From an uncultured virus (IMG/VR IMGVR_UViG_3300028840_008159) (taxonomy: Duplodnaviria; Heunggongvirae; Uroviricota; Caudoviricetes): 20,000 bases of DNA. Under the pieces are notes generated by a model, which worked only from the letters and a program-made list of their open reading frames with translations, did no database searches and was not told the DNA's origin. Within the stretch, counting starts at the first letter, position 1. Every line of letters begins with the position of its first letter. This document shows positions 53-19,837 of the stretch, in pieces. The DNA is taken from the IMG/VR virus record IMGVR_UViG_3300028840_008159. One strand, given 5' to 3'. The position numbers and the translations under genes were made by a program.

Positions 53-71
53 GGGCCTTCGGGGTTCCTGG
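53..71 (-). promoter_or_regulatory. start-associated motif copy
   Basis: CCAGG AACCC CGAAGGCCC. Confidence 0.8.
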
Positions 72-84
72 CCTTCAGGCACGG

Positions 85-576
85 TCACCAAGAGCTGTTG
101 ACCACGGTGTCCGTCTCGATCCGTCCACCGAAGGCCCGCTTGATGGCCTCGATCGAGGCCTTGGAGAAGGCCACGAAGGCCGGGGTCACGTAGCCGACGT
201 TGCTGGCGTGGCTCTCGTTGACGTACCACGCGACGTGGTCGCCCTTGACGATCTTGTGGCCGATGATCCCGTCGTACTTCTTGCCATGCTCCTTATCGAT
301 GTAACCCTTGACGGCCTTCCATCCCTTGACGGGGTCTGCGTCTACCTGGTAGCAGTCGAACAGGACGGTGGCCTGGACGATCCTGCGAAGCGCCTCGGGG
401 ATCTTCTTCCCGATGGCGTGCTCGGCGGGGAGCACCTCCAAGTCCTCCTTGACCTGCTCGAAGAGTTCCTGGTTCCTCTCCCAGAACTCGTCGTCCTCGT
501 ACTCGACCTCCACATCGTACAGGTGAGGGAAGTTGACCTTGAACGGGACGGGCGCGGCGTGGTGGTTATGGCTCAT
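85..576 (-). CDS. hypothetical protein, 163 aa
   Basis: ORF with AAGGAG SD, protein-like composition, overlaps the end of the upstream gene. Confidence 0.8.
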   Translation of the reverse strand: MSHNHHAAPVPFKVNFPHLYDVEVEYEDDEFWERNQELFEQVKEDLEVLPAEHAIGKKIPEALRRIVQATVLFDCYQVDADPVKGWKAVKGYIDKEHGKKYDGIIGHKIVKGDHVAWYVNESHASNVGYVTPAFVAFSKASIEAIKRAFGGRIETDTVVNSSW

Positions 577-922
577 GGACTTGCTCCTTTTCCTCTTCCT
601 CCAGTACCTTCATGGCCCGGATGGGGTCGTACTCGCCGTCCTCGTCGTAGACGGCCGGGTTGGCGAAAGGATGCCTGAACCCGTGGAGGACCCCGGAGAA
701 CATGGCGTGGGCCATCGCTGGCGTGACGCCGATCTCCTCGTTGAGTTCCATCGCCTTCTTCCTGCCTCCCCAATGCTCGGTCGGGAACCATCGCTCGACC
801 CCGCGCTTGTGCATGCACACGTCGCCGTACTTGTGGCGATCCTTCGCGGGGATATGGCCCCGTTGTCGCTCGTTGATGAACCAGTAGGACTTTTCGGGTA
901 GTCCCTTCAGGTCGATGATCAT
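566..922 (-). CDS. conserved hypothetical protein, 118 aa (LPEK...NEEIGVTPAMAHAM.SG..GF..P.A.P..YDEDG)
   Basis: GGAGG SD; pattern recalls an uncharacterised family from conjugative elements and phages (NxxLGVTxAQxxAMxxGSMFGWxxPxADP), from memory. Confidence 0.75.
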   Translation of the reverse strand: MIIDLKGLPEKSYWFINERQRGHIPAKDRHKYGDVCMHKRGVERWFPTEHWGGRKKAMELNEEIGVTPAMAHAMFSGVLHGFRHPFANPAVYDEDGEYDPIRAMKVLEEEEKEQVHEP

Positions 923-959
923 GGCTATCCTCCGCCCAAAAGGTCGGGTCTAATGGCCG

Positions 960-1229
960 TCAGGGACATCCGCATTCGAGGTCCTCGTCGTTGTTGTAGG
1001 GCTGATTGCATTTCGGGCACTTCACCTTGGCCTTGAACTTGATGACGTCATCGGCCAGCTCGGCGAGGAGCGCGGGCGCGTCGAGCTGGGGCGCGTCGCA
1101 TTGACACACGGACTCTCCGCTGAAGGACTCGTGCTCCACGAAGAACGCGATGACCTTGTCGAAGACGGCCTTGCGCACGTCCGGTCCGTCATCGTACTCG
1201 ACCACGTAGCTCTCGGTTTCCTTCTTCAT
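960..1229 (-). CDS. hypothetical protein with C-terminal CPKC...CGC putative Zn ribbon, 89 aa
   Basis: AAGGAG SD, Cys cluster. Confidence 0.75.
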   Translation of the reverse strand: MKKETESYVVEYDDGPDVRKAVFDKVIAFFVEHESFSGESVCQCDAPQLDAPALLAELADDVIKFKAKVKCPKCNQPYNNDEDLECGCP

Positions 1230-1232
1230 GGC

Positions 1233-1703
1233 TTACTCCTTGACGGGCCAGACGTAGGGGAGGGTCGGCGGTTCCGACCACCCGAACCTCCCGTACCAGG
1301 CCGGGTCCTTGCGCAGCAGGTTGCTCCGGTGGCTCGCGTGGAAGTCGGCGTTTCCGAGCCACGGCGGCGGTTCCAGGCCGAGGATCGTGATCCGCGCCCA
1401 TGACGGCGAGAAGACGCTAGGCGCCAGGATGACGTGAGCCAGCTCCCCTTCGATGAACACGCGCTGCTTCTCGTTCTTGTAGCCCCTGCCGACCCACTCG
1501 TCGATCATGGCCTTCATGTACACGGCCAGGGCGCCCTCGTGCCCGCGCCACATCCGGGCCGCCGGGTGGTTCGCCCAGCCCTTCCTGATCCCCTTGAGGG
1601 CCTCGATGAGCTGCCGCGCCTCGACGCGCTGCTTGCCCAGACGAAGACGGTCCAGGGCGCGGGCCGACGCGGCGAAGTCAGGGTATGGAAGGAACGTTTG
1701 CAA
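1233..1703 (-). CDS. pyrimidine dimer DNA glycosylase/endonuclease V-like protein (MSMEG_6728 family)
   Basis: MQTFLPYPDF..SA..LD..RLGKQRVE, HPA..MWRG, PPWLG, HASHRSNLLRKDP, LPYVWP; TTG start at 1703 with GGAGG SD. Confidence 0.85.
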   Translation of the reverse strand: MQTFLPYPDFAASARALDRLRLGKQRVEARQLIEALKGIRKGWANHPAARMWRGHEGALAVYMKAMIDEWVGRGYKNEKQRVFIEGELAHVILAPSVFSPSWARITILGLEPPPWLGNADFHASHRSNLLRKDPAWYGRFGWSEPPTLPYVWPVKE

Positions 1704-1751
1704 TGTCAGCCTCCACGTAAATGTTACCACGTGTCTCGTGCCTGTCCAGCC

Positions 1752-1770
1752 GGGCCTTCGGGCTACCTGG
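1752..1770 (-). promoter_or_regulatory. start-associated motif copy
   Basis: CCAGG TAGCC CGAAGGCCC, contains upstream stop. Confidence 0.8.
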
Positions 1771-2470
1771 CCGTGGCCGGGACCATCTGGTCCAGGCGGA
1801 CGAAGTCGAAGTCCACGTCCTCGCCATCCAGGTCGAATTTTTTCATCCAGATGTCGATCATCTTCTCGGTCATCTCAAGCTCGCGGTGGTCGTGACAGCC
1901 ATCGCACGCGAAAAGGGCGTAATCGTGGGGCGGACGCGGCGCGTACGGGTTCCCGACCGGGTGATCCTCCGTCCCCAAGAGCAGCGCGTCCATGACGAAC
2001 CTGTTGTGGTTCGTCTCCTTTGGTTGGGGCACGCCGCAGACGTCGCATTTCCAGCGGGGGCCGAAGGCGTACTCGTACGTCCTGACGCGGACGACCAACG
2101 TCTGGCGTTCCACCGGGACGTAGCCCCGGAAGAGCCGCACGGCCTCGTCGAAGATGATGTCCGGGGAGTTGAACGTGACCGGGCCGAGCGGCCCTCGGAC
2201 GAAGCCGCCCGGCCGCGACGACATCTTGTTGACGTCCTCGTGGATCTCGTAGGTCAGGGAGAACAGGCACGGCTGGATCGGCGACTCCAAGGTCCCGACG
2301 GTCATGATCTTGCCCGGACCCAACTTGCGCAAGCCGCGCATCTCTTCCCTGTGGGACGAGACGTAGCGAGCCGCCACCCCACGCTCCAGTAGTTGCTTGA
2401 GCATGTAGCGGAGGTAGTCCTCGGACTCGTTCGCGAGCTTTCCGATGATGTATGACTTGGATTCGCTCAT
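1763..2470 (-). CDS. hypothetical protein, 235 aa, with CxxC...CxxC
   Basis: ATG at 2470 coupled to upstream TGA (TGATG); CDVC and CDGC. Confidence 0.75.
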   Translation of the reverse strand: MSESKSYIIGKLANESEDYLRYMLKQLLERGVAARYVSSHREEMRGLRKLGPGKIMTVGTLESPIQPCLFSLTYEIHEDVNKMSSRPGGFVRGPLGPVTFNSPDIIFDEAVRLFRGYVPVERQTLVVRVRTYEYAFGPRWKCDVCGVPQPKETNHNRFVMDALLLGTEDHPVGNPYAPRPPHDYALFACDGCHDHRELEMTEKMIDIWMKKFDLDGEDVDFDFVRLDQMVPATAR

Positions 2471-2841
2471 CAATGCCACCATAGGATGATCGGGGTGTCG
2501 GCGGGCAACGCCTTGACGAAGGCCATCGCGGCCTCGTTCCAAGGACTTCCCTTCCAATGCCCCGCCGCCTTCGCGAGGTCGCCAGCCTTGACGTAGAAGA
2601 GGGGGTCGCCGTAGGAGTCGGTCGTCGTCCGCTCGATCCCCTCGTCGCCGTACCAGTCGAAATGAACCTTCCGGGGGAGTCGCTTCGGTTTCAGCGGCGC
2701 GGCGAGCTTCTGGCCGTCCTCGTTGCGGTTCAAGATCATGTGCCCAAGACCATCGCGGTCCAGGCCGAGGCGTTCATGTCCTAGCCACCAATCCATGCCC
2801 TCGTGATGCCTGATCGGTACTAAGGTAAGGTCCAATCCCAT
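2470..2841 (-). CDS. hypothetical phage protein, 123 aa
   Basis: AAGGGAG SD, behind motif copy; MGLDL...WWH. Confidence 0.8.
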   Translation of the reverse strand: MGLDLTLVPIRHHEGMDWWLGHERLGLDRDGLGHMILNRNEDGQKLAAPLKPKRLPRKVHFDWYGDEGIERTTTDSYGDPLFYVKAGDLAKAAGHWKGSPWNEAAMAFVKALPADTPIILWWH

Positions 2842-2867
2842 GTCATGCTCCCTTCGGCGTTTCTGGC

Positions 2868-2886
2868 GGGCCTTCGGATCGCCTGG
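2868..2886 (-). promoter_or_regulatory. start-associated motif copy (partial copy at 2848-2866)
   Basis: CCAGG CGATC CGAAGGCCC. Confidence 0.8.
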
Positions 2887-2896
2887 TGAATATGAC

Positions 2897-2983
2897 GCAG
2901 ACTCGCCTACTCTGGGTTTTCCTAGGACCCCGGTTTCGGCTGGGCTGGACCTCTCGGTCGGCCCTTCTCACCGCCCCGCCTGC
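2897..2983 (-). ncRNA. candidate structured RNA of unknown class
   Basis: intergenic; GCAGGC/GUCUGC closing stem, GACC-GAGA-GGUC hairpin inside GGGC/GCCC, GCC-GAA/AGUA-GGC loop-E-like element. Confidence 0.3.
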
Positions 2984-3001
2984 TAGAAGGCAGATTGATG
3001 G

Positions 3002-3370
3002 TCAGCTCGCCTCGTCGATCTGCCTTTGCAGGTCAAGCGCGAACCGCTTGATGACCTCGGCCTTGGAATCGACGCCCCTGCCCGGGGGCCGCAGCATCTC
3101 GACGCAGGTCCCCTTTCCCTTGGCGGTCAGGACGACGAACGTCTCGCCCTCGAACTCCCGAACCCAGCAGTGGAAGTAGAACTCGCCCTTGAAGCTGAAG
3201 TCCATCTTGCCCCACAGCTTCTTGAACGACTCGCGGTTGTCTCCCAGAATGCCGGGATCGCGCCAGCCCAAGTTCGTGGTCGAGAACCACCGGAAGAACT
3301 CCTGGCAGTTCAAGACGGGCACCGTGTTAAGCTCGCCCTTCCTGTACTTGACGCCCAATGGATGACTCAT
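3002..3370 (-). CDS. hypothetical protein, 122 aa
   Basis: ATG at 3370 overlaps upstream TGA; MSHPLGVKY... Confidence 0.75.
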   Translation of the reverse strand: MSHPLGVKYRKGELNTVPVLNCQEFFRWFSTTNLGWRDPGILGDNRESFKKLWGKMDFSFKGEFYFHCWVREFEGETFVVLTAKGKGTCVEMLRPPGRGVDSKAEVIKRFALDLQRQIDEAS

Positions 3371-3672
3371 CAGTTGCTCCACAATCCGGGCTTGCGGACG
3401 GGCTGCTCTCGCTCGATGGCCGCGCCGTCCTTGACCTCGACGAAGTGACTCTTGACGTACTTCTCCTCGTCCTCGTCGTAGAAGTTCACGCGGAAGAACT
3501 GGCTCTTGCCGTTCTTGAACAGGTGGGCGATGCTCCGGTCCATCCCGCGCCCTCGCGGGAACGCCTTGGCGACGACCTGACGCGCCTCCTCGACGCCCAA
3601 GTCCTTCACCTCGTCGGGCTTGACCTCGACGCAATCGCATTCGGGTTTCGGGCAATCAACGCAGTTGCTCAT
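3370..3672 (-). CDS. hypothetical protein, 100 aa, N-terminal Cys cluster
   Basis: AAGGAG SD, ATGA overlap, CVDCPKPECDC. Confidence 0.75.
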   Translation of the reverse strand: MSNCVDCPKPECDCVEVKPDEVKDLGVEEARQVVAKAFPRGRGMDRSIAHLFKNGKSQFFRVNFYDEDEEKYVKSHFVEVKDGAAIEREQPVRKPGLWSN

Positions 3673-4055: not shown

Positions 4056-4198
4056 GCCTTCCCCTTTCGATCCAAGGGACGGGCCTTCGCCTCCCCTGGC
4101 CGATGGATCATCACGGAAGCCGCGATGCCTACAAGTATCCAGGTAGCGAATCCGGTGCAAGCCAGAAACTCGACGATGATGTGCCAGATCGTTTCCAT
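4052..4198 (-). CDS. small putative membrane protein, 48 aa (METIWHIIVEFLACTGFATWILVGIAASVMIH...)
   Basis: own translation; hydrophobic stretch; TGA overlaps next ATG; no clear SD. Confidence 0.55.
   Translation of the reverse strand: METIWHIIVEFLACTGFATWILVGIAASVMIHRPGEAKARPLDRKGKA
4081..4099 (-). promoter_or_regulatory. start-associated motif copy
   Basis: CCAGG GGAGG CGAAGGCCC GTCCCTTGG. Confidence 0.8.
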
Positions 4199-4210: not shown

Positions 4211-4229
4211 GGGCCTACGACGCGCCTGG
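4211..4229 (-). promoter_or_regulatory. start-associated motif copy
   Basis: CCAGG CGCGT CGTAGGCCC. Confidence 0.75.
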
Positions 4230-4817: not shown

Positions 4818-4836
4818 GGGCCTTACGTTCACCTGG
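4818..4836 (-). promoter_or_regulatory. start-associated motif copy
   Basis: CCAGG TGAAC GTAAGGCCC. Confidence 0.7.
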
Positions 4837-5224
4837 CCTCGCATATCTTGACGACCTCGATCCATTCGTCGTCGCTGACGATGACGCGTCTGGAACCGCT
4901 GCACATCTCCAATATGCCAGCGGCGTTACGATGCTCACGATGACAAACCAGAACGGCGTCTTCCAGCCCCCGCCACGCCCCGTCAGGGGACTTGGCGACG
5001 TCGCCCTTGGCGAGGGCGTCACGCGCCTCCTGCATGGTAGGTCGGCGTATCGTAAGGAACGGGAAGGACTTGGACACCTCGACCCGCATGTGGAACAGGC
5101 TGTCGGCGTATGACCTGGCGAGCCGCTCCTTCCAGTCCTCGCGCCTTTTCTCGATGACGGCCAAGGCGGTCTGGCACGTCTCGCGCGCCCTGGCCACGGG
5201 TATGCAGGCGTATGAGGGCATCAT
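4829..5224 (-). CDS. hypothetical protein, 131 aa
   Basis: AAGGAGG SD, ATGA overlap. Confidence 0.75.
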   Translation of the reverse strand: MMPSYACIPVARARETCQTALAVIEKRREDWKERLARSYADSLFHMRVEVSKSFPFLTIRRPTMQEARDALAKGDVAKSPDGAWRGLEDAVLVCHREHRNAAGILEMCSGSRRVIVSDDEWIEVVKICEAR

Positions 5225-5460: not shown

Positions 5461-5479
5461 GGGCCTTGCGATTACCTGG
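5461..5479 (-). promoter_or_regulatory. start-associated motif copy
   Basis: CCAGG TAATC GCAAGGCCC. Confidence 0.7.
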
Positions 5480-6401
5480 TCTTCTTGAGCTTCTGGACGA
5501 GCTTGCCGAGGTCCTTCAGCTTCTCGTCCTTGTCCTTCAGGAGGGACTCGTGGGGTAGTTTTTTCAGCGCGACGATGATCGTCTTCACGTCGCATCCAAG
5601 CACCTTGGCGAGCTTCATCCCAGTCACGATGAACTCCGCGTACTCGCTCTTCTTGGGGCGCCTCCAGTAATGTTCGCAACTCTTGTCGGCGACGAGTCCT
5701 TTCCCGAAGAAGTTGATGAACTTGCCGATGTCGCCGAACGCCTTCCTCAGTTCCACGGCCAGCTTCTCCGCCACGACCGTCACCTCGTTCAGCTTGACGG
5801 GCTTCTTGTACTTCTTGTTCGTCTTGTAGACGGGCGTTGCGAAATGCCAGTAGAACTCCCCGACGCGGACGCCCTCCACGTCCTTGAACGACCTCGCCAG
5901 CGAGCGGTTGATCAGGAGCCGCTTGTGCCGCTTGACCTCCTCCATGACACGCCGCTTGCGCGACGCGGTGAGCCTGGCGTCCTCCTTGTCCTCGCCGAGG
6001 AGCAGGAACGGGGAGTTCAGCACGTAGGCCGACCCGTTGTAAAAGACGTGATGATAGAGGTCCGGCGCGGGTTGCGCCTTCGGGAACTTGCCCGCGATGT
6101 ATTCGAGAACCTCGTCCAGGCTGTCCCCGGTGAACTCGACGTTCTTGGCCAGCGGCTCGTCGATGGGTCGCAGGTACACGTTGAAACGGGCCTTGATGAT
6201 CGCGTTGCCGCTTCTGCGCTCGTCCTCGGAGTACGCCACCCACCGGGCGGGCTTCATGATGTCCAACCCGCACCTGCTCTCGTGCGGCTTCCCGACGACG
6301 TGCCATCCTGGGGCGGTGGCCTTGTCGCCAAGCTCCCTGTCCACGTCGGCGGCGTCGATCCCGATCCTTGCGCAGAAGTCCGCGATGCTCGTTCTTTCCA
6401 T
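5472..6401 (-). CDS. hypothetical basic protein, 309 aa
   Basis: GGGAGG SD, behind motif copy. Confidence 0.8.
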   Translation of the reverse strand: MERTSIADFCARIGIDAADVDRELGDKATAPGWHVVGKPHESRCGLDIMKPARWVAYSEDERRSGNAIIKARFNVYLRPIDEPLAKNVEFTGDSLDEVLEYIAGKFPKAQPAPDLYHHVFYNGSAYVLNSPFLLLGEDKEDARLTASRKRRVMEEVKRHKRLLINRSLARSFKDVEGVRVGEFYWHFATPVYKTNKKYKKPVKLNEVTVVAEKLAVELRKAFGDIGKFINFFGKGLVADKSCEHYWRRPKKSEYAEFIVTGMKLAKVLGCDVKTIIVALKKLPHESLLKDKDEKLKDLGKLVQKLKKTR

Positions 6402-6426: not shown

Positions 6427-6445
6427 GGGCCTCCGGTCTACCTGG
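6427..6445 (-). promoter_or_regulatory. start-associated motif copy directly after terminator
   Basis: CCAGG TAGAC CGGAGGCCC GCCCCATGGG. Confidence 0.75.
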
Positions 6446-7232: not shown

Positions 7233-7251
7233 GGGCCTTCGACAAGCCTGG
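7233..7251 (-). promoter_or_regulatory. start-associated motif copy
   Basis: CCAGG CTTGT CGAAGGCCC. Confidence 0.8.
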
Positions 7252-8218: not shown

Positions 8219-8245
8219 GCCTTTCCCCTTTCGACCCCCAAGGAC

Positions 8246-8264
8246 GGGCCTTCGGCGTTCCTGG
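8246..8264 (-). promoter_or_regulatory. start-associated motif copy
   Basis: CCAGG AACGC CGAAGGCCC GTCCTTGGG. Confidence 0.85.
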
Positions 8265-8609
8265 TCAGGAGGCACGCTCGCAGAAGAAGTCCAGCTTGGC
8301 GAGCAGCAGGGCGGCGACCGCCGGGTACCACCTTGGGTTCCGGGCAGCCGAAGCCAGGAAGTCCAGGACCGTCCCGGCACTCACGTAGTCGGAACCCTCG
8401 TCGCCGCACCGGATGCAGACGTGGGCGACCCCGTCTTGGTCATGCACGTAAACGTCGTACTTCCTGATCTCCGCCCGACCAATTTGCTGAACGGATCCCA
8501 GGTACTCGCTGCGCCTATGGCCGCAGCCATCCTCGTACAGCGGCCCCTCGCACCCGTGAATGTCCGGGTCGTAGGCGTCATGGATGGCATGAGTCATCTT
8601 GATCCGCAT
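8265..8609 (-). CDS. hypothetical protein, 114 aa
   Basis: GGAG/AGG SD, fills the gap between neighbours. Confidence 0.7.
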   Translation of the reverse strand: MRIKMTHAIHDAYDPDIHGCEGPLYEDGCGHRRSEYLGSVQQIGRAEIRKYDVYVHDQDGVAHVCIRCGDEGSDYVSAGTVLDFLASAARNPRWYPAVAALLLAKLDFFCERAS

Positions 8610-8839: not shown

Positions 8840-9151
8840 TCAAGCCTCGAACTTCTTGGCCCCTTCGCCGTCCCACGTCGCCGGGCCGTCCGACTCCACG
8901 TGGAGGGCGTAGGCCAACGCCTTCTCGTTCCCCTCCTCGTACTCGCAGACCAGCTCGCCGTAGGTCCCGAAGTCGTGCGGGGACCACTTGATCACGAGCC
9001 GCGCCCCCTCCGGCTCCGGCCCGCACTTCTCGCGGATCAGGTCCCGGTAACGGGTCATCTCCTCGGTGGCCTTGGCCCGGTAATCAGGTGCTCCGACCTG
9101 GACGCAATCCTCCTCGCAGGGGGACGAGCCGATGTAGACGTAGTCGGTCAT
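8840..9151 (-). CDS. conserved phage hypothetical protein, 103 aa (IGSSP.EEDCVQVG...HDFGTY)
   Basis: ATGA coupling with upstream small gene; motif familiar from phage proteins. Confidence 0.8.
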   Translation of the reverse strand: MTDYVYIGSSPCEEDCVQVGAPDYRAKATEEMTRYRDLIREKCGPEPEGARLVIKWSPHDFGTYGELVCEYEEGNEKALAYALHVESDGPATWDGEGAKKFEA

Positions 9152-9315
9152 GCCTTTTTCTCCCTCTCGTTCTCGATGATAAGCAGCTCGCGCATGAGTC
9201 GCAAGTCCTTGTCGTTGCAGGACATCGACATCAAGAAGAGCAGCGCGGACAGCAGGGGTTCCCGACTGGATCGGGCCGCGAGACGGATCAGTTCTTGGTA
9301 CTCGTTGGATTCCAT
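9148..9315 (-). CDS. small helical protein, 55 aa (MESNEYQELIRLAARS...), paralog of 9597-9752
   Basis: own translation; SD AAAGGGG; 27 of the first 45 residues identical to the paralog. Confidence 0.8.
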   Translation of the reverse strand: MESNEYQELIRLAARSSREPLLSALLFLMSMSCNDKDLRLMRELLIIENEREKKA

Positions 9316-9320
9316 CGGCG

Positions 9321-9356
9321 GGTTCCCCTTTCGTCGCCGGTTCCCCTTTCGTCGCC
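9321..9356. repeat. perfect 18-bp tandem duplication containing the SD
   Basis: GGTTCCCCTTTCGTCGCC x2. Confidence 0.9.
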
Positions 9357-9365
9357 CCCAAGGAC

Positions 9366-9384
9366 GGGCCTTCGGGGAACCTGG
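9366..9384 (-). promoter_or_regulatory. start-associated motif copy
   Basis: CCAGG TTCCC CGAAGGCCC GTCCTTGGG. Confidence 0.85.
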
Positions 9385-9387
9385 CTT

Positions 9388-9600
9388 TCAAAGGTCGGCG
9401 GGTTTGCCGACGCCAGGAAAATTGTAGTCGCCCCGCTTGACGGCCTCAAGCTCGGCCTTGGACGCTTCGGCGTATTTTGGATGAGCCTTCTCCTTGGCGA
9501 GGCAATCCATGCAGATTATGTCCTCGTTGAACTTGGACATGATGGTCACGGCGGTTTGGTCGCCGCATCGATCGCAAGTCCCGGATGGTGATCTCGTCAT
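9388..9600 (-). CDS. conserved small Zn-binding protein, 70 aa (CDRC...MSKFN...CMDC...GDYNFPGVG)
   Basis: GAGGGG SD, ATGA overlap, two CxxC. Confidence 0.8.
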   Translation of the reverse strand: MTRSPSGTCDRCGDQTAVTIMSKFNEDIICMDCLAKEKAHPKYAEASKAELEAVKRGDYNFPGVGKPADL

Positions 9601-9752
9601 TTCCCCTCTCCTCCTCCCAGTATCTCCCGGACGCTCTGCAAGTCCTTGTCGTCGCGGAGCATCGCCATCGCGTAGAGCAACGCGGCCAGTAGGGGTTGAC
9701 GGTCCGACCGCTGCGCGAGCTTGACGAGCTGAACGTATTCGTTTGATTCCAT
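9597..9752 (-). CDS. small helical protein, 51 aa (MESNEYVQLVKLAQRS...), paralog of 9148-9315
   Basis: own translation; GGGGGAGG SD; behind motif copy. Confidence 0.8.
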   Translation of the reverse strand: MESNEYVQLVKLAQRSDRQPLLAALLYAMAMLRDDKDLQSVREILGGGEGK

Positions 9753-9778
9753 TGCCTCCCCCTTTCGTCCCCAAGGGC

Positions 9779-9797
9779 GGGCCTTCGGCGTTCCTGG
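9779..9797 (-). promoter_or_regulatory. start-associated motif copy
   Basis: CCAGG AACGC CGAAGGCCC GCCCTTGGG. Confidence 0.85.
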
Positions 9798-9814
9798 TCT
9801 TCAGGCACGTTCGG

Positions 9815-10276
9815 TCAGAGGGCGTTCTCGTCCCAGAACTTCTCGGCCTCCTCGCGAGTCATCCTGAACCCGTAGTAGGCGACGCGAGTCTCCGTGGTCT
9901 CGACGACCTTCTTCCTGGCCTTCCACCAGCACCAGGTATGCTGCCGCCACACGCCGTCGCGTGACAGGGCGTACCCGGTCATGATCTCCAGCTTGTCCTT
10001 GTTGTTCTCCCACAGGCAGCACGAGTTGAAGTGACACTTGCAGTTCGCGCCGCGCCTCATCAGCGGGCGCCCGGTCTTCAGCTCGCCGCGCTCCATGATG
10101 GCCTTCAGGTCTTCCTCGATGACGGGCAGGATGACCCACTTGCCGCCCAGCCCGACCAGCCGGTCACGCAACGGACCCAGCTCCGGGGCCTGCTTCAGCA
10201 CGCCGCGCTCGCGGTCGTCCAGGAACTCCCGGCGTTCATCGTCCACGCGCTCGGCCTTGTACCTGATCCTTGGCAT
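9815..10276 (-). CDS. hypothetical protein, 153 aa, possible transglutaminase/papain-like fold
   Basis: CHFN...TGYAL..DG.WRQHTW...VVETT, a C/H/acidic triad pattern; TGATG coupling. Confidence 0.7.
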   Translation of the reverse strand: MPRIRYKAERVDDERREFLDDRERGVLKQAPELGPLRDRLVGLGGKWVILPVIEEDLKAIMERGELKTGRPLMRRGANCKCHFNSCCLWENNKDKLEIMTGYALSRDGVWRQHTWCWWKARKKVVETTETRVAYYGFRMTREEAEKFWDENAL

Positions 10277-10461
10277 CAGCTCGCCTTCCTGCAAAGTCCG
10301 TGGTCGATCATCGACTGGGCCACGCGACCGTAGTGCCCCTGGAGTCGCCACGCCATCCCGGAGTCGATGAGTTCCTGGAAGAACTCGATCTGCTCCTCTC
10401 GCGTCATCCGGCCATCCTCGTAGGCCATGATCTTGTCGAGCAGCTTGGATTCGGCAGCCAT
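10276..10461 (-). CDS. conserved small phage protein, 61 aa (AYE.G...FQELIDSG.AW.LQG.YGR)
   Basis: GAGGAG SD; widespread phage family recalled from memory (possibly DUF7417). Confidence 0.8.
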   Translation of the reverse strand: MAAESKLLDKIMAYEDGRMTREEQIEFFQELIDSGMAWRLQGHYGRVAQSMIDHGLCRKAS

Positions 10462-10471
10462 GATCTCCTCC

Positions 10472-10798
10472 TCAGACCGCGTACTGGAGGGGGAACGCGG
10501 GTTCCCCGCACCTCGGGCAGAAGAACTCGCCGTCCTTCTTGACCGGCTCGTCATGCTCGACGAACGAGTTCCACCCGCAGCGGAGGTTGTTGTCCTTGAC
10601 ATGCTGGATGTGCTTGCAGTCCTTGCGGAACTTGTACCCCTCGCATTCGCAGGAGTAGTCGTACTGGACCTCGTGGTTGCGATGGGAATGGCGATCCCAA
10701 GTGACCTTGTAACGGCGCCCCTTGGACCCATCGACCGTCGAGGACCATTCCCGGTCAGTCTCGCAATGCCAGAAGGTCTCGAGCGTCAGGTCAGGCAT
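10472..10798 (-). CDS. SWIM zinc finger protein with extra C-terminal CxxC, 108 aa
   Basis: GSKG..Y.V...YSCECEGYKFRKDCKHI (CxC-x7-CxH). Confidence 0.8.
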   Translation of the reverse strand: MPDLTLETFWHCETDREWSSTVDGSKGRRYKVTWDRHSHRNHEVQYDYSCECEGYKFRKDCKHIQHVKDNNLRCGWNSFVEHDEPVKKDGEFFCPRCGEPAFPLQYAV

Positions 10799-10823
10799 CT
10801 TGTCTTCCTCCCGCCCCAAGGAC

Positions 10824-10842
10824 GGGCCTTCGGACGTCCTGG
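10824..10842 (-). promoter_or_regulatory. start-associated motif copy
   Basis: CCAGG ACGTC CGAAGGCCC GTCCTTGGG. Confidence 0.85.
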
Positions 10843-10870
10843 ACGATCTTGGCAAGCAGCATGATCGTTC

Positions 10871-11086
10871 CTAGCTCGGGAAACAGTCGTCGCACATGCC
10901 GCTGACGAACAACTCGCGCTCGCTCGCGGGCATCGTCGGGAAGGCGTTCTGCACGAGCGCGCCCGCGAGGTACTTCTTGACGCCCTCGATGGGGGCGCGC
11001 AACTCCTGCTCCTTGCCGCAGCAGGGGCAGGTGAAAACGCATACCGCGTGCGTGTCGTCCTGATCCTTGACCTTGAACGGAGCCAT
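10871..11086 (-). CDS. small Zn-binding protein, 71 aa
   Basis: CPCC...LVQNAFP...ERE...SGMCDDC. Confidence 0.8.
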   Translation of the reverse strand: MAPFKVKDQDDTHAVCVFTCPCCGKEQELRAPIEGVKKYLAGALVQNAFPTMPASERELFVSGMCDDCFPS

Positions 11087-11103
11087 GTCTTTCCCCTTTC
11101 TCC

Positions 11104-11316
11104 TCAGTCCCAGAATGCCTTGCCCATCTCGGCCTCGGTGATCCCGCCGCCGTGATACTCGACGAGGCTGTCGAAGCCATCAAAGTCCTCATGCCAGTAG
11201 CGGGAGTCGTACCGCTCCTTGAACGCCTCCCAGAGAGCGTCCTTGACCTGCTCGCGGCTGGTCCCTACGCAGGCGAGCGCGTACTTGGTCTCGACCCGTC
11301 CAATGAATACCTTCAT
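11104..11316 (-). CDS. hypothetical protein, 70 aa
   Basis: SD and motif copy upstream. Confidence 0.75.
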   Translation of the reverse strand: MKVFIGRVETKYALACVGTSREQVKDALWEAFKERYDSRYWHEDFDGFDSLVEYHGGGITEAEMGKAFWD

Positions 11317-11342
11317 GCCTTCCCCCTTTCGACCCCAAGGAG

Positions 11343-11361
11343 GGGCCTTCGGCGTTCCTGG
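11343..11361 (-). promoter_or_regulatory. start-associated motif copy
   Basis: CCAGG AACGC CGAAGGCCC CTCCTTGGG. Confidence 0.85.
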
Positions 11362-11373
11362 CCGTCAGGCACG

Positions 11374-11751
11374 TCAGGCGAACGTGAACCCGTCCATGCC
11401 CAAGTCCTTCATCGTCTGGTCGATCTGGCCCAGCATCGCCTCTCCCATCGGCTCCTCGCTGAAGAACTTCCTGCCGTTGGAGTCGAGGGGGAGCTTGGCG
11501 TTCCACTCGTCGAAGAAGACGCGGTACACGTCCTTCTCCAGCGCGACGGCGTATCGCCCGTTCAGCAGGTCGGCTACGTCGAGGGCGTGTTCCCGTAGCC
11601 AAGCCTTCTGGTCGGGGGTCAGCAGCTTGTCCCTGATCACGGCGCAGACGCGACGGTCGTCGAATTCCGTCGCCTCCTCCAACGCCTCCATGATCGGGTC
11701 GGGGTGAGGGACGTACTTGACGCCCCTGCGCGTCTTGATCGTCTTTCCCAT
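11374..11751 (-). CDS. hypothetical protein, 125 aa
   Basis: AAGGAG SD before ATG 11751. Confidence 0.75.
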   Translation of the reverse strand: MGKTIKTRRGVKYVPHPDPIMEALEEATEFDDRRVCAVIRDKLLTPDQKAWLREHALDVADLLNGRYAVALEKDVYRVFFDEWNAKLPLDSNGRKFFSEEPMGEAMLGQIDQTMKDLGMDGFTFA

Positions 11752-12773: not shown

Positions 12774-12792
12774 GGGCCTTCGGCGTTCCTGG
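12774..12792 (-). promoter_or_regulatory. start-associated motif copy
   Basis: CCAGG AACGC CGAAGGCCC. Confidence 0.85.
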
Positions 12793-13042: not shown

Positions 13043-13333
13043 TCACCTGCTTCGACGGGCCTTGCCGTCGCCTGGCCCGACCAACACGGCGTCGATCATG
13101 GCGACCCTGGCGCGCCTCGCCGCCTCCTCAAAGCTGTTCCGATACTTCAGGCGGTCATAGATGACCTTGCCGCGCCTCGCTATCCGGCAAGCCTCCGGCG
13201 TCCAGTCCTCGGGAATGACGCTGCGGGACCAGATGCGCAGGACTAGCTCGACGCGCTCGGATACGGTCAGGCTTCCCCAGTCGTTCTTCATCAGCCCCTT
13301 GGCGACGAACGACTTGATCTTGGACTCCGTCAT
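13043..13333 (-). CDS. hypothetical protein, 96 aa
   Basis: GAGGAG SD before ATG 13333. Confidence 0.7.
   Translation of the reverse strand: MTESKIKSFVAKGLMKNDWGSLTVSERVELVLRIWSRSVIPEDWTPEACRIARRGKVIYDRLKYRNSFEEAARRARVAMIDAVLVGPGDGKARRSR
13057..13075 (-). promoter_or_regulatory. start-associated motif copy inside the 3' end of a CDS
   Basis: CCAGG CGACG GCAAGGCCC. Confidence 0.7.
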
Positions 13334-13766: not shown

Positions 13767-14144
13767 TTATCGGTTGAACCATTGGACATGGGTCGCGTCC
13801 TTCGGCAGGTCGCTCATGTCGCTCGGGCTGATGGGCTGGCTGGACGCCTTGCCGTCCTTGACCGGATAGCCGAACCCGTCGTCGTCGGTCAGGCATCCAG
13901 ACCGGACGCCGCAACGCCATGTCTCGACGGTCATCAGGTTGCCGATGCCGCCGACCTCCTCGGTATACCGGCCCCGCGACCGTCGCTTGGCGACCTCTCG
14001 GCAGTCTCCGCAGCGAAGCCACGTGACGTCGTCGTCCATCGGCCTCGAAGGCAGGGAGGAGTCGGCGTAGGCGGACTCGACGCGGTTGCCATCCTCGTCC
14101 GTCAGGATCGTCCCGCAGTTAAGGCATTTGGTCTGGATGCCCAT
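13767..14144 (-). CDS. hypothetical protein, 125 aa, with CxxC pairs
   Basis: GAGGAG SD; CLNC, CGDC. Confidence 0.75.
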   Translation of the reverse strand: MGIQTKCLNCGTILTDEDGNRVESAYADSSLPSRPMDDDVTWLRCGDCREVAKRRSRGRYTEEVGGIGNLMTVETWRCGVRSGCLTDDDGFGYPVKDGKASSQPISPSDMSDLPKDATHVQWFNR

Positions 14145-14167: not shown

Positions 14168-14186
14168 GGGCTTTCGTCTTGCCTGG
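14168..14186 (-). promoter_or_regulatory. start-associated motif copy
   Basis: CCAGG CAAGA CGAAAGCCC TCCCTTG. Confidence 0.75.
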
Positions 14187-15264: not shown

Positions 15265-15283
15265 GGGCCTTCGCCCGACCTGG
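15265..15283 (-). promoter_or_regulatory. start-associated motif copy
   Basis: CCAGG TCGGG CGAAGGCCC GCCCTTGGG. Confidence 0.85.
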
Positions 15284-15744: not shown

Positions 15745-15763
15745 GGGCCTTCGCCCGACCTGG
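15745..15763 (-). promoter_or_regulatory. start-associated motif copy
   Basis: CCAGG TCGGG CGAAGGCCC ACCCTTGGG. Confidence 0.85.
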
Positions 15764-16202: not shown

Positions 16203-16227
16203 GTCTCCCCCTTTCGTTCCCAAGGGT

Positions 16228-16246
16228 GGGCCTTCGGCGTCCCTGG
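16228..16246 (-). promoter_or_regulatory. start-associated motif copy
   Basis: CCAGG GACGC CGAAGGCCC ACCCTTGGG. Confidence 0.85.
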
Positions 16247-16247
16247 C

Positions 16248-16514: not shown

Positions 16515-16695
16515 CGTCCTCCTCCTCGCGGGACGCCCGATACTCGGCCAGCCCGTCCTCGATCTGCTCGTCGGCGTCGGCGTGCGAGACGCGGTCCAGT
16601 ACCTCGCGTCGGGACCGGAAGCTGGTCTTGCGCCCCCGCGTAGCGGCGGCCATCGCCGCCGCCTTCGTCTTGGAAGCCTCCCTCGCGCTCGGCAT
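16501..16695 (-). CDS. hypothetical protein, 64 aa
   Basis: GAGGGG SD before ATG 16695. Confidence 0.6.
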   Translation of the reverse strand: MPSAREASKTKAAAMAAATRGRKTSFRSRREVLDRVSHADADEQIEDGLAEYRASREEEDDETR

Positions 16696-16711
16696 CGGCG
16701 TTCCCCTCCCT

Positions 16712-17572
16712 CTAGGCGACCTCGCTGACGGGCCGCCCCAGAACCTTCGCGGCGGCGGCCAGTACCCATTCCATCGCCGCCTCTTGCGTCTCCCAATGAT
16801 GCGTCCCGTTCCGCAGGGACGGAACCTCGATGCCCCGTTCCTCCGACGTATGCCCTCGGCTCTCCGTAGGGCAACCGTAGCCGCCCGGAATCCCGAACCG
16901 GCTTCTAAGAGCGGCGTTTTCATGCTCCTTCGCTGAGAAGACCAGCCGCCGCAGCCAAGCGGAGTTCGCCAGCGCGAACGCCAGACGGTCAAGGTCGAGC
17001 GGGTCGCCAGCCTTGCGAAGGCAGACGTCATACTGGAGTACCTCGCGGTCGCCGTTCCAGCCGGGCGAAGACGCAGCCGATACGATGATCTCGCAGGAGT
17101 AGCCCAACTTCTCCAGCGCGTCCACCAGCGCGACGACGGCTGCCCCTCGGCAGAAGATCGTTCGCGTCGATACGCCAGCCGACGCCGACATGTTGACCCA
17201 AACCTTGACGACCTTGCCGCGCCCAAGGACGTTCTCGTCCTCGACGAACTGGATCATGTCCTCCGGTTCGCCCGTCAGGAAGCGGTCGACGTCAGCGAAC
17301 GCGCCAGCGACGTCGTACTGGATATCGACGCGGGGCATCTGCTGCCCGATGACGTTCCAGATCGACTCGGCCATGTCCTTGACCCGCGCCAAGCCCTCGG
17401 GCCAGCCGTCCCGCGCCAGACGCATCGCGTCCTCGAACGTCTCCGTACCGGACCAGAAAGTCCCGTCGGCGTTCCTATGCGACGACCTGCGGCTGGAGCC
17501 GTTGACGCTCGGCGTCCGGGCGACATGCTCCAGCCAAGCGTCGAAGTCGAACTCCCTCAGATGGATCGTCAT
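16712..17572 (-). CDS. vWA-like partner of MoxR AAA+ ATPase (DUF7192-like), 286 aa
   Basis: beta strand VKVWV followed by NxSxS degenerate MIDAS, LVDALEKLGYSCEI; adjacent to the ATPase. Confidence 0.7.
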   Translation of the reverse strand: MTIHLREFDFDAWLEHVARTPSVNGSSRRSSHRNADGTFWSGTETFEDAMRLARDGWPEGLARVKDMAESIWNVIGQQMPRVDIQYDVAGAFADVDRFLTGEPEDMIQFVEDENVLGRGKVVKVWVNMSASAGVSTRTIFCRGAAVVALVDALEKLGYSCEIIVSAASSPGWNGDREVLQYDVCLRKAGDPLDLDRLAFALANSAWLRRLVFSAKEHENAALRSRFGIPGGYGCPTESRGHTSEERGIEVPSLRNGTHHWETQEAAMEWVLAAAAKVLGRPVSEVA

Positions 17573-17604
17573 CGGCGTTTCCCCCTTCGTTCGGCGTCAA
17601 GGCC

Positions 17605-17623
17605 GGGCTTTCGCCCGACCTGG
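17605..17623 (-). promoter_or_regulatory. start-associated motif copy
   Basis: CCAGG TCGGG CGAAAGCCC GGCCTTG. Confidence 0.8.
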
Positions 17624-17629
17624 TCGGCG

Positions 17630-18616
17630 TCAGCAAGCCTTGCGCATCTCGGCGCGGAGCTTCGCTACGCTCGCCGCCTCGACGCCAGCGAGGAACGACA
17701 TTTCCTCGACCTTGGCCCAAGGCAGACCGGCGTCCAGAGCCTCGCCGCCGTAGATGCTGTCATGCGGCGAGACGATGATCCGCAGGCCGATCCGCTCGGC
17801 GGCCCGACGAGCCTTCTGGACATGGCGCGTCCAGTCGGCGCGGGGCGCGATCCGCATCTCATGCGCCTCGTTGTACCCCCAAGCCAGCTTGAGGAACCGC
17901 TTGAGCGTTGCGGCGTCGAGCTTGTTCCGCTGGTAATCGAGGGACGCGCCCGTACCGAACGTATTGGCCGCGCCGACGCAACAGAAGTCGGGATGCGCCT
18001 CGACGACCTCGCCGTTCGGGAACGTATAGACGCGGTTCTCGACAGCCGCGTTGAAGGCGGTCAGGCAGTTCGGGTTCGCCGCGTCCATCTCGTCGAACAG
18101 GTACAGGCCGCCGAACTTGAAGATGCGGTAGAAGCCCGACTCTACGTACTCGCCCTTCGCGTTCATGTACCCCGCGAAGCGGCTCTCGGGCGTCTGGTTG
18201 CAGAACGACTGGGGCAGGAAGTCCAGCCCCAACGCCTTCGCGATCTTGCGACAGGCGGTCGTCTTGCCCGATCCCGTAGGACCGACCAGCATGACCTTGA
18301 TGCGCCCCTTGACGAGCGTCATCAGCGTCCCGTACTCGGGATGCTCGGACGGTTTCGGCTCGGGCTTGTTGCCGAACGGCTTGACGGCGGCGGTCAGCTT
18401 GCGACCCGGGACGTGATGGCCGCAGCCCTTCAAGAGCGTCCATGTATGCCAGCCCTTGTTGTCCTTGCCCGAATCGGGAGTCCAGAAGCCGAACTCCTCG
18501 TCGAGGGCGCAGAAGTCGGGCGTACCCAACTTGCGGACGTTGCGGTCGTACGACTCCTTCAACGCCGCCATGCGACCATCGTCCTTCGAGAACGCTACTC
18601 GGCTTGCCATGTCCAT
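17630..18616 (-). CDS. MoxR/CbbQ/CobS-type AAA+ ATPase, 328 aa
   Basis: Walker A GPTGSGKT, Walker B LYLFDEMDAA, HPDF...AANT sensor 1, LDAATLKRF Arg finger. Confidence 0.9.
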   Translation of the reverse strand: MDMASRVAFSKDDGRMAALKESYDRNVRKLGTPDFCALDEEFGFWTPDSGKDNKGWHTWTLLKGCGHHVPGRKLTAAVKPFGNKPEPKPSEHPEYGTLMTLVKGRIKVMLVGPTGSGKTTACRKIAKALGLDFLPQSFCNQTPESRFAGYMNAKGEYVESGFYRIFKFGGLYLFDEMDAANPNCLTAFNAAVENRVYTFPNGEVVEAHPDFCCVGAANTFGTGASLDYQRNKLDAATLKRFLKLAWGYNEAHEMRIAPRADWTRHVQKARRAAERIGLRIIVSPHDSIYGGEALDAGLPWAKVEEMSFLAGVEAASVAKLRAEMRKAC

Positions 18617-18657
18617 GCCCCCTGTCTCCCTCGTTCACTCGGTTCGGCCCAAGGGGT

Positions 18658-18834
18658 GGGCCTTCGCCGCGCCTGGTCCCTCTCGCACCCCCATCGGCGT
18701 TCGGCGTCTTCGGCGTTTCTGGTCGGCGTTACTGGTGGGCCTTCGCGGCCCCTGGCCCCCCTCCGCACCCCCGTCGGCGTCACCGGCGTTTCCCCCGTCC
18801 GGCGACACAAAGGACGGGCCCACGCCTTTCCTGG
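18658..18834 (-). repeat. three motif copies at 79-bp period (18658-18676, 18737-18755, 18816-18834)
   Basis: the first two also share a flank (plus strand CCTGG.CCC...CGCACCCCC.TCGGCGT); the third is the CGTGGGCCC variant. Confidence 0.8.
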
Positions 18835-18921
18835 CGGCGCGAGACACGCCCGAGGATCGGCGGCGTGAGGCCGCGCCGCCGAGGTCGCGCCCGGCGGCGT
18901 GCGTCACCGAGGCGAGAGATG

Positions 18922-18940
18922 CCAGGTCGACCGAAGGCCC
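18922..18940 (+). promoter_or_regulatory. motif copy in plus orientation
   Basis: CCAGG TCGAC CGAAGGCCC GTCC. Confidence 0.85.
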
Positions 18941-18977
18941 GTCCTCGCGAGCGTTCGAGGGGACAAAGGAGATGACG

Positions 18978-19301
18978 ATGCCTACGGTACGCATGACGAA
19001 GGACGGGGAGTTGGCGACGGTCGCGGCGGTCGACGCCCGAACCGCCGAGCTTACCAAGGAGCGCAACGCGGCGCGTCTGACCGCGTCCTCCTACGCGGGT
19101 CGCCGCCTGTCGTACTTCGCGTCCCAATGGCGCGGCAAGGTCGCGGCCCTGAGCCGCCGCCTCAACGCGCTCAAGGCGCGTCGCGCCGAGCTGTCCGAGG
19201 CCGCCCTCAAGGGCCGCTGCGCGGACTGCCCGCGAAACGAGTTCTGCCCGCTCAACATGGGCGGCGACTGCACCTTCGTCGCCCAGAACATGGCCGCCTG
19301 A
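18978..19301 (+). CDS. hypothetical protein, 107 aa, coiled coil plus C-terminal Cys4 cluster
   Basis: AAGGAG SD; CADC...C...C; behind the inverted motif copy. Confidence 0.75.
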   Translation: MPTVRMTKDGELATVAAVDARTAELTKERNAARLTASSYAGRRLSYFASQWRGKVAALSRRLNALKARRAELSEAALKGRCADCPRNEFCPLNMGGDCTFVAQNMAA

Positions 19302-19320
19302 CCAGGCGGGCCGAAGGCCC
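19302..19320 (+). promoter_or_regulatory. motif copy in plus orientation
   Basis: CCAGG CGGGC CGAAGGCCC GCCCCTTGGG. Confidence 0.85.
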
Positions 19321-19349
19321 GCCCCTTGGGGAGCGAAAGGGGGACGGAT

Positions 19350-19544
19350 ATGGCATCGTCCAAGTTCGGGGTCGTCAAGGCCGCGCCCGCGTCCAAGCAG
19401 GCGCGAGCGGATACGCTGGCCTGGAGGCGCGAGCGCGACGCCCGACGACGGCGCGAGCGCGACGCCAAGGCGCACGGCCAGTCCCTCGCGGGGGGGCTGA
19501 AGGCCGCGCTGAAGGCCGCCTACGAGAAGAAGCGGGCGAGCTAG
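19350..19544 (+). CDS. small basic protein, 64 aa
   Basis: AAAGGGGG SD, motif copy upstream. Confidence 0.7.
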   Translation: MASSKFGVVKAAPASKQARADTLAWRRERDARRRRERDAKAHGQSLAGGLKAALKAAYEKKRAS

Positions 19545-19818
19545 TCGCCCGCCTGGACCGGGAGGAGCATTCATGCGCATGAGATGAGATGACTAACACG
19601 GCGCAGGTGGCGCCGCGCAGGCACGGTGGAGGGCGTCCCGTACACGGAGGGGGGGACGCGCCGCCCTGACCCGTCGCCAGCACCTCCGAACCAAGGACAT
19701 CCGAATGTCCGCGGTCGACGCGAGGATAGCCGAGCGACCATCCGCTTCGGTGGGCCTCGGCGATCCCTGGCGCGAACATGACACGCCGGCACGACGAGCC
19801 TGCTCCTACACGGGACGG

Positions 19819-19837
19819 CCAGGCTCCCCGTGGGCCC
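19819..19837 (+). promoter_or_regulatory. motif copy in plus orientation
   Basis: CCAGG CTCCC CGTGGGCCC, 28 nt before ATG 19866. Confidence 0.7.

Follow-up and report, generated by a model that had tools for sequence, protein, structure and literature searches.

The question raised by this locus is what is read from a short bipartite DNA motif, CCAGG-N5-CGAAGGCCC (where N represents any base), that recurs before the genes of an uncultured virus of the Caudoviricetes (IMG/VR record IMGVR_UViG_3300028840_008159) in a stretch of 20,000 nucleotides, the whole of which was analysed and is hereafter termed the window. An earlier note on this DNA had described 27 copies, 24 on the minus strand and 3 on the plus strand, always in the sense of the downstream gene, and had interpreted them as the site of a phage-specific transcription system or as a polar operator. 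Here, the motif family was found to be real and statistically overwhelming, and all of the tests performed fit a DNA-level, orientation-dependent transcription signal. The reading that we favour, and hold with moderate confidence, is that the motif is the core of a promoter family for a dedicated transcription apparatus that is not of the sigma-70 type.

The motif was detected in the window at 18 sites as an exact match, compared with 0.00 expected from 200 dinucleotide-preserving shuffles, and at 28 sites when up to two mismatches were permitted, compared with 0.41 expected (Table 1; copies are named below by their first coordinate). Extension of the pattern by NNC with three mismatches permitted returned the same 28 sites and no new one (2.04 expected); thus, the family is sharply bounded and is not the tail of a composition effect. 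The copies were distributed as 25 on the minus strand and 3 on the plus strand, and 27 of the 28 were in the sense of the downstream gene (binomial P ~1e-7), with 24 minus-strand copies preceding minus-strand genes and the three plus-strand copies preceding the three plus-strand genes at the right end. The remaining copy, which the earlier count had missed (19752-19770, minus strand), was regarded as doubtful because its orientation opposes the local genes and a flank-aware sequence model does not recover it. For the other 27 copies, the number, strands and sense reported in the earlier note were confirmed, as was its description of CCAGG, the final GCCC and the spacing as invariant around a free N5. 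When the copies were aligned in a fixed register, CCAGG and GGCCC were found to be invariant in 28 of 28, as was a C at +21, which lies three bases beyond the pattern used for the search; all mismatches were confined to CGAAG. The N5 spacer was effectively free, with 23 different pentamers among the 28 copies (AACGC four times and TCGGG three times) and 0.06-0.57 bits at each of its five positions in the motif profile. The core and its immediate flanks (25 positions) carried ~30 bits, or 26 bits against the composition of the window, compared with the 10.5 bits that suffice for 28 sites; so large a surplus of information is characteristic of T7-class promoters. In the profile, T-rich positions were confined to +23 and +24, which are followed by a run of G, the pattern expected around a transcription start point. 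Even the copies that overlap coding sequence (4818, 5461, and 13057) kept both CCAGG and GGCCC and varied only in CGAAG.

The position of the motif relative to genes was examined on a map built from open reading frames (ORFs) supported by GC3 and from starts preceded by a Shine-Dalgarno sequence, which comprised 46 genes and 84% coding DNA. The window has a G+C content of 61-71%, and coding is almost wholly on the minus strand except in the last kilobase. On this map, 24 of the 28 copies were wholly intergenic, three overlapped the last codons of the upstream gene, and one was located within a gene. Seventeen copies ended 23-32 nucleotides (nt) before the next start codon, consistent with the placement that the earlier note had given for most of them. 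The remaining copies were at 41-50 nt (n = 5), 119-307 nt (n = 5), and 1135 nt (n = 1, the doubtful copy), where the 119-307 nt class was composed of the tandem copies 4211, 18737, and 18816 together with copies 15745 (119 nt) and 4818; the last of these is 307 nt from a start on the map, though an ATG only 30 nt away opens a short ORF of 38 amino acids (aa). In all 22 copies with a start within 50 nt, the core ended at least 23 nt before it. The distance from the upstream stop codon to the motif was scattered (-8 to 274 nt), while that to the start was tight, and the motif is therefore tied to the downstream and not to the upstream gene. Motif-bearing gaps measured 45-72 nt; motif-less junctions were of 3-17 nt or overlapping, each gene having its own Shine-Dalgarno sequence.

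Beyond the core, the copies were found to share elements of a longer module. A CCTTGG extension followed the core in 11 of the 28 copies and a CGAAAGGGG Shine-Dalgarno block in 7, such that the extension the earlier note had said to occur often is a property of a subset. An optional GTGCC box was positioned 11-12 nt before CCAGG in 6 of 28 copies, with GTGC at -11 to -13 in 9 of 28, and whole modules of 42-61 nt were 60-90% identical between copies. Between copy 9366 and gene 9148-9315, the leader with its Shine-Dalgarno sequence is doubled by a perfect 18-bp tandem duplication at 9321-9356 (GGTTCCCCTTTCGTCGCC, twice), which resembles the product of recent slippage or recombination within a module. 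Tandem copies were located 41, 120, and 199 nt from one and the same start, and leaders of 46-50 and 119 nt were found elsewhere. With these stacked copies and long leaders, the core need not touch the ribosome-binding site, a freedom that fits promoters easily and a purely translational role poorly.

The region between the two arms of the gene map was of particular value, as the transcripts of both arms must begin within it. This divergent region (18617-18971; 355 bp, ~70% G+C) separates the start of an AAA_5 ATPase gene at 18616 (leftward) from a start at 18972 (rightward), and was found to hold three tandem leftward copies at a regular spacing of exactly 79 bp, together with a single rightward copy that ends 31 nt short of the rightward start. 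No sigma-70-like site was detected in the region by hexamer scan, and neither a TANNNT or TA-containing -10-like box nor an AT-rich box was found in it by inspection; the motif copies were its only conserved elements. Also observed was a heptamer, (A)ACGCCG(A), which occurs at least seven times between the tandem copies at 18690-18800 and again in the leaders after copies 2868 and 17605, and one stretch of 18690-18800, CCAGAAACGCCGAAG, resembles a decayed core. Across the window as a whole, sigma-70-like hexamer pairs were at 4 sites (2.2 expected) and in no case kept a constant offset to the motif, and a sigma-70-type promoter was rejected on this basis and on that of the divergent region. 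The statement in the earlier note that sigma-70-like boxes are missing from the sites thus holds for any fixed offset, with the qualification that one hexamer pair (1748-1721) lies just downstream of copy 1752, between it and the gene at 1233-1703. Terminator-like sites were at chance frequency (13 in the window compared with 14.3 expected).

Of the two options in the earlier note, the promoter is favoured over the operator because (i) the motif tracks the start codon, (ii) it has no conserved RNA fold, and (iii) it is the sole conserved element of the divergent region; the operator is retained at the lower probability given below. From the arrangement of these sequences we infer promoter activity, a start point and the nature of the factor. 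Candidates for the apparatus are an RNA polymerase or a sigma-like factor of the phage, or else an alternative host factor exploited by the element. The asymmetry of the site, its two invariant boxes, the rigid spacing and the free 5-bp spacer suggest that one protein with two reading heads would contact CCAGG and CGAAGGCCC-NN-C at a fixed distance without reading the intervening 5 bp. The predicted start point is in the T-T/G-G-G-G stretch, ~6-10 nt downstream of GGCCC, and would yield leaders of ~15-25 nt with a strong Shine-Dalgarno sequence, which agrees with the 23-nt minimum to the ATG. Genes that lack a motif (3-17 nt after their predecessor or overlapping it) would be co-transcribed with the preceding gene, and the region would be split into ~24 small transcription units, with three stacked promoters for the first leftward gene and one for the rightward arm.

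Several points weigh against the promoter reading: (i) no gene for an RNA polymerase, sigma factor or activator was found among the ~49 translated ORFs of the window; (ii) the G+C content of the motif is very high, and no -10-like element that would obviously melt is present in it; (iii) a spacer of 5 free bp sets the motif apart from the promoters of T7-type polymerases, which have ~23 bp of continuous conservation through the start and an AT-rich melting segment, whereas the motif is GC-rich and free at five central positions; (iv) stoperator-type repressor sites yield the same genomic picture of asymmetric sites tied to direction in short gaps; and (v) the comparison with phage phiC31 below depends on copies of a word, CCGGGTTGCCGACnnCCTTA, that we take to be its mapped early promoters.

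Table 1. Copies of the bipartite motif in the window, with the distance from the end of the core to the start codon and the features of each copy.
Position	Strand	Mismatches	Distance to start (nt)	Start codon	Features
53-71	-	0	26	ATG at 26	GTGCC box upstream
1752-1770	-	0	48	TTG of DenV-like gene 1233-1703	Overlaps stop of gene 1763-2482
2868-2886	-	0	26	ATG 2841	
4081-4099	-	0	25	ATG 4055	CCTTGG/CGAAAGGGG extension
4211-4229	-	1			Tandem, 130 bp upstream of copy 4081; GTGCC box upstream
4818-4836	-	2	30	ATG 4787 (38-aa hydrophobic ORF)	Overlaps 3' end of gene 4829-5221
5461-5479	-	2	24	ATG 5436	Overlaps 3' end of gene 5472-6401
6427-6445	-	1	25	ATG 6401 (309-aa ORFan)	
7233-7251	-	0	47	ATG 7185	Directly after upstream stop
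8246-8264	-	0	27	ATG 8218 (DUF6876 gene)	Full extension and GTGCC box
9366-9384	-	0	50	ATG 9315	Extension; leader lengthened by 18-bp duplication
9779-9797	-	0	26	ATG 9752	Full module (GTGCC box, core, extension); best score of the family
10824-10842	-	0	25	ATG 10798	
11343-11361	-	0	26	ATG 11316	Full module
12774-12792	-	0	27	ATG 12746 (326-aa protein)	
13057-13075	-	2	23	ATG 13033	Sole copy wholly inside a gene (13043-13333)
14168-14186	-	1	23	ATG 14144	
15265-15283	-	0	46	ATG 15218	
15745-15763	-	0	119	ATG 15625	GTGCC box
16228-16246	-	0	25	ATG 16202	Extension
17605-17623	-	1	32	ATG 17572 (DUF7192 gene)	
18658-18676	-	0	41	ATG 18616 (AAA_5 ATPase gene)	Proximal of three tandem copies
18737-18755	-	0			Middle tandem copy, 79 bp from proximal
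18816-18834	-	2			Distal tandem copy, another 79 bp upstream
18922-18940	+	0	31	ATG 18972	First of rightward arm
19302-19320	+	0	29	ATG 19350	Extension; directly after upstream stop
19819-19837	+	2	28	ATG 19866 (membrane-protein-like ORF running off window)	
19752-19770	-	2			Doubtful copy; opposes local genes; missed by flank-aware sequence model

Known promoter types were compared with the motif, and its closest analogue in kind is the early-gene motif of Streptomyces phage phiC31. The early region of that phage (21758-36240) contains seven copies of CCGGGTTGCCGACnnCCTTA and a slightly divergent eighth. The phiC31 word is unrelated in sequence, and the window motif had 0 matches in phiC31 at up to 2 mismatches. 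All seven phiC31 copies are in the sense of the gene, several directly after a stop codon, and lie 28-50 nt before the next start, compared with 27 of 28 in gene sense and a mode of 23-32 nt here. In both cases a GC-rich word of ~20 bp that is not sigma-70-like precedes early genes of a high-GC phage, and a separate inverted-repeat element stands beside some of the copies. Repeated palindromes containing CCTACTCACGTGAGTAGG were also observed in phiC31. The two differ in that the phiC31 word is continuous whereas the window motif is bipartite with a free 5-bp spacer, in density (7 copies in 17 kb compared with 24-27 in 19 kb), and in their unrelated proteins. Thus, membership in the phiC31 consensus was rejected on sequence, while the general geometry of the phiC31 type is present. 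The early promoters of phiC31 are reportedly the subject of work by Ingham et al. (1993) in Mol Microbiol and by Smith et al. (1999) in NAR, and we know of no identification of the factor that reads them.

The other promoter classes were less similar. The sigma-54 (-24/-12) consensus is TGGCAC-N5-TTGC, and its geometry is present, as an interval of exactly 10 bp separates GG (motif positions 4-5) from GC (16-17) in every one of the 28 copies; the two short boxes, the short rigid spacer and the implied leaders of at least 14 nt are likewise sigma-54-like. The boxes themselves differ: A replaces T before the GG in 28 of 28 copies, the three bases after the GG are free, and the -12 box TTGC is represented by AGGC in 26 of 28 copies and AAGC in 2, with T at neither position in any copy. 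Furthermore, no sigma-54-type activator was found in the window, where the sole AAA+ protein is the AAA_5 ATPase, which lacks a GAFTGA loop. The motif was accordingly not classified as a sigma-54 promoter, because the rest of the consensus is absent and the neighbouring ATPase is of the MoxR/CobS type. With T7-class promoters, the motif has in common a high information content, uniformity, a location before genes in their sense and a compact fit between genes; the continuous ~23-bp conservation of that class is interrupted here by N5. The N4-type promoter, which forms its own 5-7-bp stem with a 3-nt loop, was also rejected, since an N5-GGCCC stem around GAA or GAAG (two registers) had 52% and 46% of its cells paired, close to the 52% and 43% of shuffled controls, which speaks against an N4-type hairpin and an RNA stem alike. 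Chi/KOPS-type words, nick sites, REP-like repeats, attC and methylation sites were considered as well, and none explains an intergenic motif with a fixed distance to the start and a gene-linked orientation.

Among the alternatives, the one that survives best, possible though unlikely, is that the motif is a stoperator-like polar operator, with a phage repressor binding every copy and blocking, in a manner that depends on orientation, both initiation at the arm heads and elongation between genes, so that the region as a whole would be silenced, as by the L5-type repressor in its phages. The operators/stoperators of Cluster A mycobacteriophages (L5, Bxb1, and TipsytheTRex) are asymmetric, continuous 13-mers, present in more than 20 copies in promoter regions and short intergenic gaps; their orientation correlates with the direction of transcription, and they are bound by a monomeric protein whose two DNA-binding domains occupy adjacent major-groove openings (PMC9283540). 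A repressor of the window motif would perhaps also be a monomer, with its two DNA-binding domains on CCAGG and GGCCC in neighbouring major grooves, a design to which a bipartite site with a free spacer is suited. The genomic pattern of the window motif is indeed that of the L5 type as described in that source: the site is asymmetric, its orientation follows that of the gene in 27 of 28 copies, 24 lie wholly between genes and in short gaps, and several form a cluster where the leftward arm begins. However, a motif of two boxes around a free spacer differs from a continuous 13-mer, and stoperators have no fixed distance to starts, with one copy overlapping a recognisable host-type promoter, whereas the distance here is tight (17 of 28 at 23-32 nt). 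The analogy drawn by the earlier note holds for the genomic pattern only. Other findings also count against such an operator: (i) a real promoter is needed at each arm head, yet none is recognisable in the divergent region, host-type promoters included; (ii) the motif gaps are ~30 nt longer than a bare operator and a Shine-Dalgarno sequence require; (iii) conservation extends past the core into the T-T/G-rich stretch; (iv) no repressor, repressor-like or integrase gene was found among the ORFs of the window, to which this test was confined; and (v) one copy per ~2 genes is a higher density than that of L5.

An RNA-level signal in a polycistronic mRNA, whether a processing site, a site for a translational activator or stabiliser, or a leader governing access to the Shine-Dalgarno sequence, is quite improbable. 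Such a signal would resemble the RNase III sites of T7 or the start-associated sequences (SAS/ESAS) of Cluster K mycobacteriophages, and the strict mRNA sense of the motif near starts is compatible with it. Ten copies were folded as RNA, with z-scores of -2.4 to +0.8 and no shared structure. The sole recurring feature was a short CCCUU/AAGGG stem in some of the extension-bearing copies, where the CCTTGG extension can pair with the AAGG of the Shine-Dalgarno region (5-7-bp stem predicted in 4 of the 10 folds), and upstream CGTGCCTG forms an imperfect inverted repeat with CAGGAACG in 5-6 copies. The pairing of the extension (11 of 28 copies, with the CGAAAGGGG block in 7) and the upstream repeat would suit an RNA-level role, but both are restricted to subsets, and the core had neither a conserved fold nor covariation in the ten folds and the two stem registers. 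A search of the whole window against Rfam gave 0 matches at E up to 1, and no transfer RNAs were found. The distance to the start, which can reach 41-199 nt, is a further difficulty, and this reading would leave the divergent region without a promoter for either arm. SAS are described as asymmetric 13-mers that include the Shine-Dalgarno core, 3-7 bp from mostly ATG starts; they are found at non-structural genes only and in one orientation, about half of them in an extended form, and their function is given as unknown (PMC3203893). The window motif is unlike SAS, as its core is at least 23 nt from the start and its Shine-Dalgarno sequence is separate; membership in SAS, an analogy that the earlier note had raised, was thus not borne out.

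The weakest reading, that the ~60-nt modules are mainly homology patches for the exchange of small gene cassettes, with any role in expression secondary, is very improbable: the 42-61-nt modules common to the copies and the unrelated ORFans that they flank are in its favour, but homology alone leaves the invariant boxes beside a free N5, the orientation and the start distance unexplained, and a single cassette-type difference was found among the matches listed. That difference was on a contig of sequencing run X5, ~90% identical to the window, in which the start of gene 8840-9151 and a module like that at 11323 are separated by 7 nt, without the 55-codon gene 9148-9315 that the window has between the two. 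Judged by this sequence comparison, the cassette-type difference ends at a module; the evidence comes from a single contig of low depth, on one side of which the match extends over 26 nt. The PeSL cassettes of T4-type phages provide a precedent: they combine a strong sigma-70-like early promoter with a terminator stem-loop, border non-essential ORFan genes of variable regions, and are able to mediate the shuffling of modules (PMC2839356). The layout here is PeSL-like in that modules flank cassettes and perhaps shuffle them, while the parts differ from those described. Membership, as raised in the earlier note, was rejected, with no sigma-70 boxes at the motif, terminator-like sites at chance and a stem in a subset of copies only. 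Since PeSLs, as described there, are themselves promoters and terminators, the recombination reading adds to the promoter reading and does not replace it.

The occurrence of the motif elsewhere was examined in phage, plasmid, viral, metagenome and genome collections, and among the matches listed no relative carrying the motif was identified. No DNA near-identical to the window was found in phage or plasmid collections, and a blastn search of phages with a 63-nt module returned 8 partial matches (E 2-6), each single in its record. The core with CC was found at 22 loci in the viral_contigs collection, all single, and the extension pattern at 0 loci there; in metagenome_contigs the core with CC was at 119 loci or more, all single among the matches listed except on one contig, which has two identical copies on opposite strands. 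In genome_contigs (species genomes), the core with CCTTGG was at 5 loci, all of coding-like context. By eye, nearly all of the matches elsewhere were coding DNA or terminator hairpins, and the literature matches listed for CGAAGGCCC were in primer or unrelated contexts only. The best match among the loci not selected for the extension was a metagenome locus (L106; 282-323, minus strand, of a 2.5-kb contig), at 27.4 bits by the flank-aware model compared with 24.8 for the next, where a stop codon is followed after 2 nt by an exact motif, 26 nt with GGGAGG, and an ATG. This contig has two small same-strand ORFs with no similarity to those of the window. The contig may belong to a relative, or to a different part of the present genome, which is put as a possibility because the score margin is small and the genes are unrelated. 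In run X2, the window was recovered as one contig of depth 50, and another contig of 8,856 nt and depth 47.9, probably of the same genome, carries module 8236-8279 with three differences; the motif is therefore also present outside the window in what is probably the same genome. The same run had 118 further partial matches. Window DNA was present in sediment and seawater metagenome runs from several studies, with no RNA run among those listed.

The genes of the window offered little annotation. Family matches among the ~49 translated ORFs were few and consisted of AAA_5, DUF7192, DUF6876, DUF7417 and a DenV-type pyrimidine-dimer glycosylase, while five further ORFs matched PHROGs of unknown function. 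The AAA_5 gene matches a CobS-like PHROG named 'porphyrin biosynthesis'. The glycosylase is encoded at 1233-1703 (Pfam Pyr_excise, E 9e-23) by a gene that probably starts with TTG. The AAA_5 and DUF7192 genes (16712-18616) are also neighbours in Tunturiibacter phage Tunturi_4, and each has matches in Sinorhizobium phiM5, Rhizobium P106B and many actinobacteriophages (Gordonia and Mycobacterium) at 30-41% identity; from these similarities they look like a conserved early-gene pair of unknown role. By this pair, Tunturi_4 is the closest cultured phage (41% and 34% identity), and it was found to have ordinary TTGACA/TGTAAT-type repeats and palindromes, with the motif absent. Upstream of its AAA gene is a 2.3-kb unannotated stretch (9088-11461) with CACACAGA/GTGTGT short tandem repeats and CTGCACACTGTGCAG palindromes. 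In viral_contigs, the DUF7192 protein and an alignment of the 326-aa family each had 0 loci, and the DUF6876 protein had no tblastn match in phages. The 309-aa protein had no homologue among 5.8 billion clusters other than the query itself, and a weak C-terminal helix-turn-helix hint (E 0.04-0.08) was unproductive; a homologue search with the 326-aa protein gave 7 proteins including that of the window and nothing usable, and the protein atlas was uninformative for both. Small proteins with CxxC pairs are encoded at 9388-9600, 13767-14144, and 3370-3669, one of which had weak, below-threshold matches to Lar-like and treble-clef zinc-ribbon families (E ~1e-3); small CxxC or zinc-ribbon proteins are common among phage early proteins. 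We infer that the element is phage-like, given the PHROG matches, the DenV-like gene and an AAA_5 and DUF7192 pair that is common to phages. Proteins identical to two of the window were recorded on three contigs, the longest of 546,851 bp, and the element may thus be a very large phage or part of a larger replicon.

Overall, the motif is a new, bipartite, GC-rich word, unrelated in sequence to those compared, of a kind that is already known, namely the phage-specific regulatory words that precede early genes. A more far-reaching reading, put forward as speculation and clearly unlikely as a whole, is that the element, maybe a phage of ~0.5 Mb, drives many small early genes from a promoter class not seen before, with a -24/-12-like geometry (GG-N10-GC, rigid, GC-rich, and without a -10 hexamer) and a factor of its own, such as a highly diverged sigma-54-like or other two-domain specificity subunit or a virion-borne polymerase, and that its ~60-nt modules would double as exchange junctions for ORFan cassettes. 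This would amount to a new orthogonal pair of promoter and factor, together with a defined early regulon, in an uncultured lineage. If the copies are stoperator-like, such a silencing strategy would extend well beyond actinobacteriophages. If they are promoters, the motif would delineate the entire early programme of this uncultured and perhaps very large phage-like element, with ~24 transcription units and ~46 almost entirely unknown genes in the window alone, and would provide a precise bait for the polymerase or specificity factor. In that case, a GC-rich promoter of ~30 bits with a free spacer and its cognate factor would also form a candidate orthogonal expression pair. Furthermore, the promoter-leader modules may reveal how such elements shuffle their ORFan genes.

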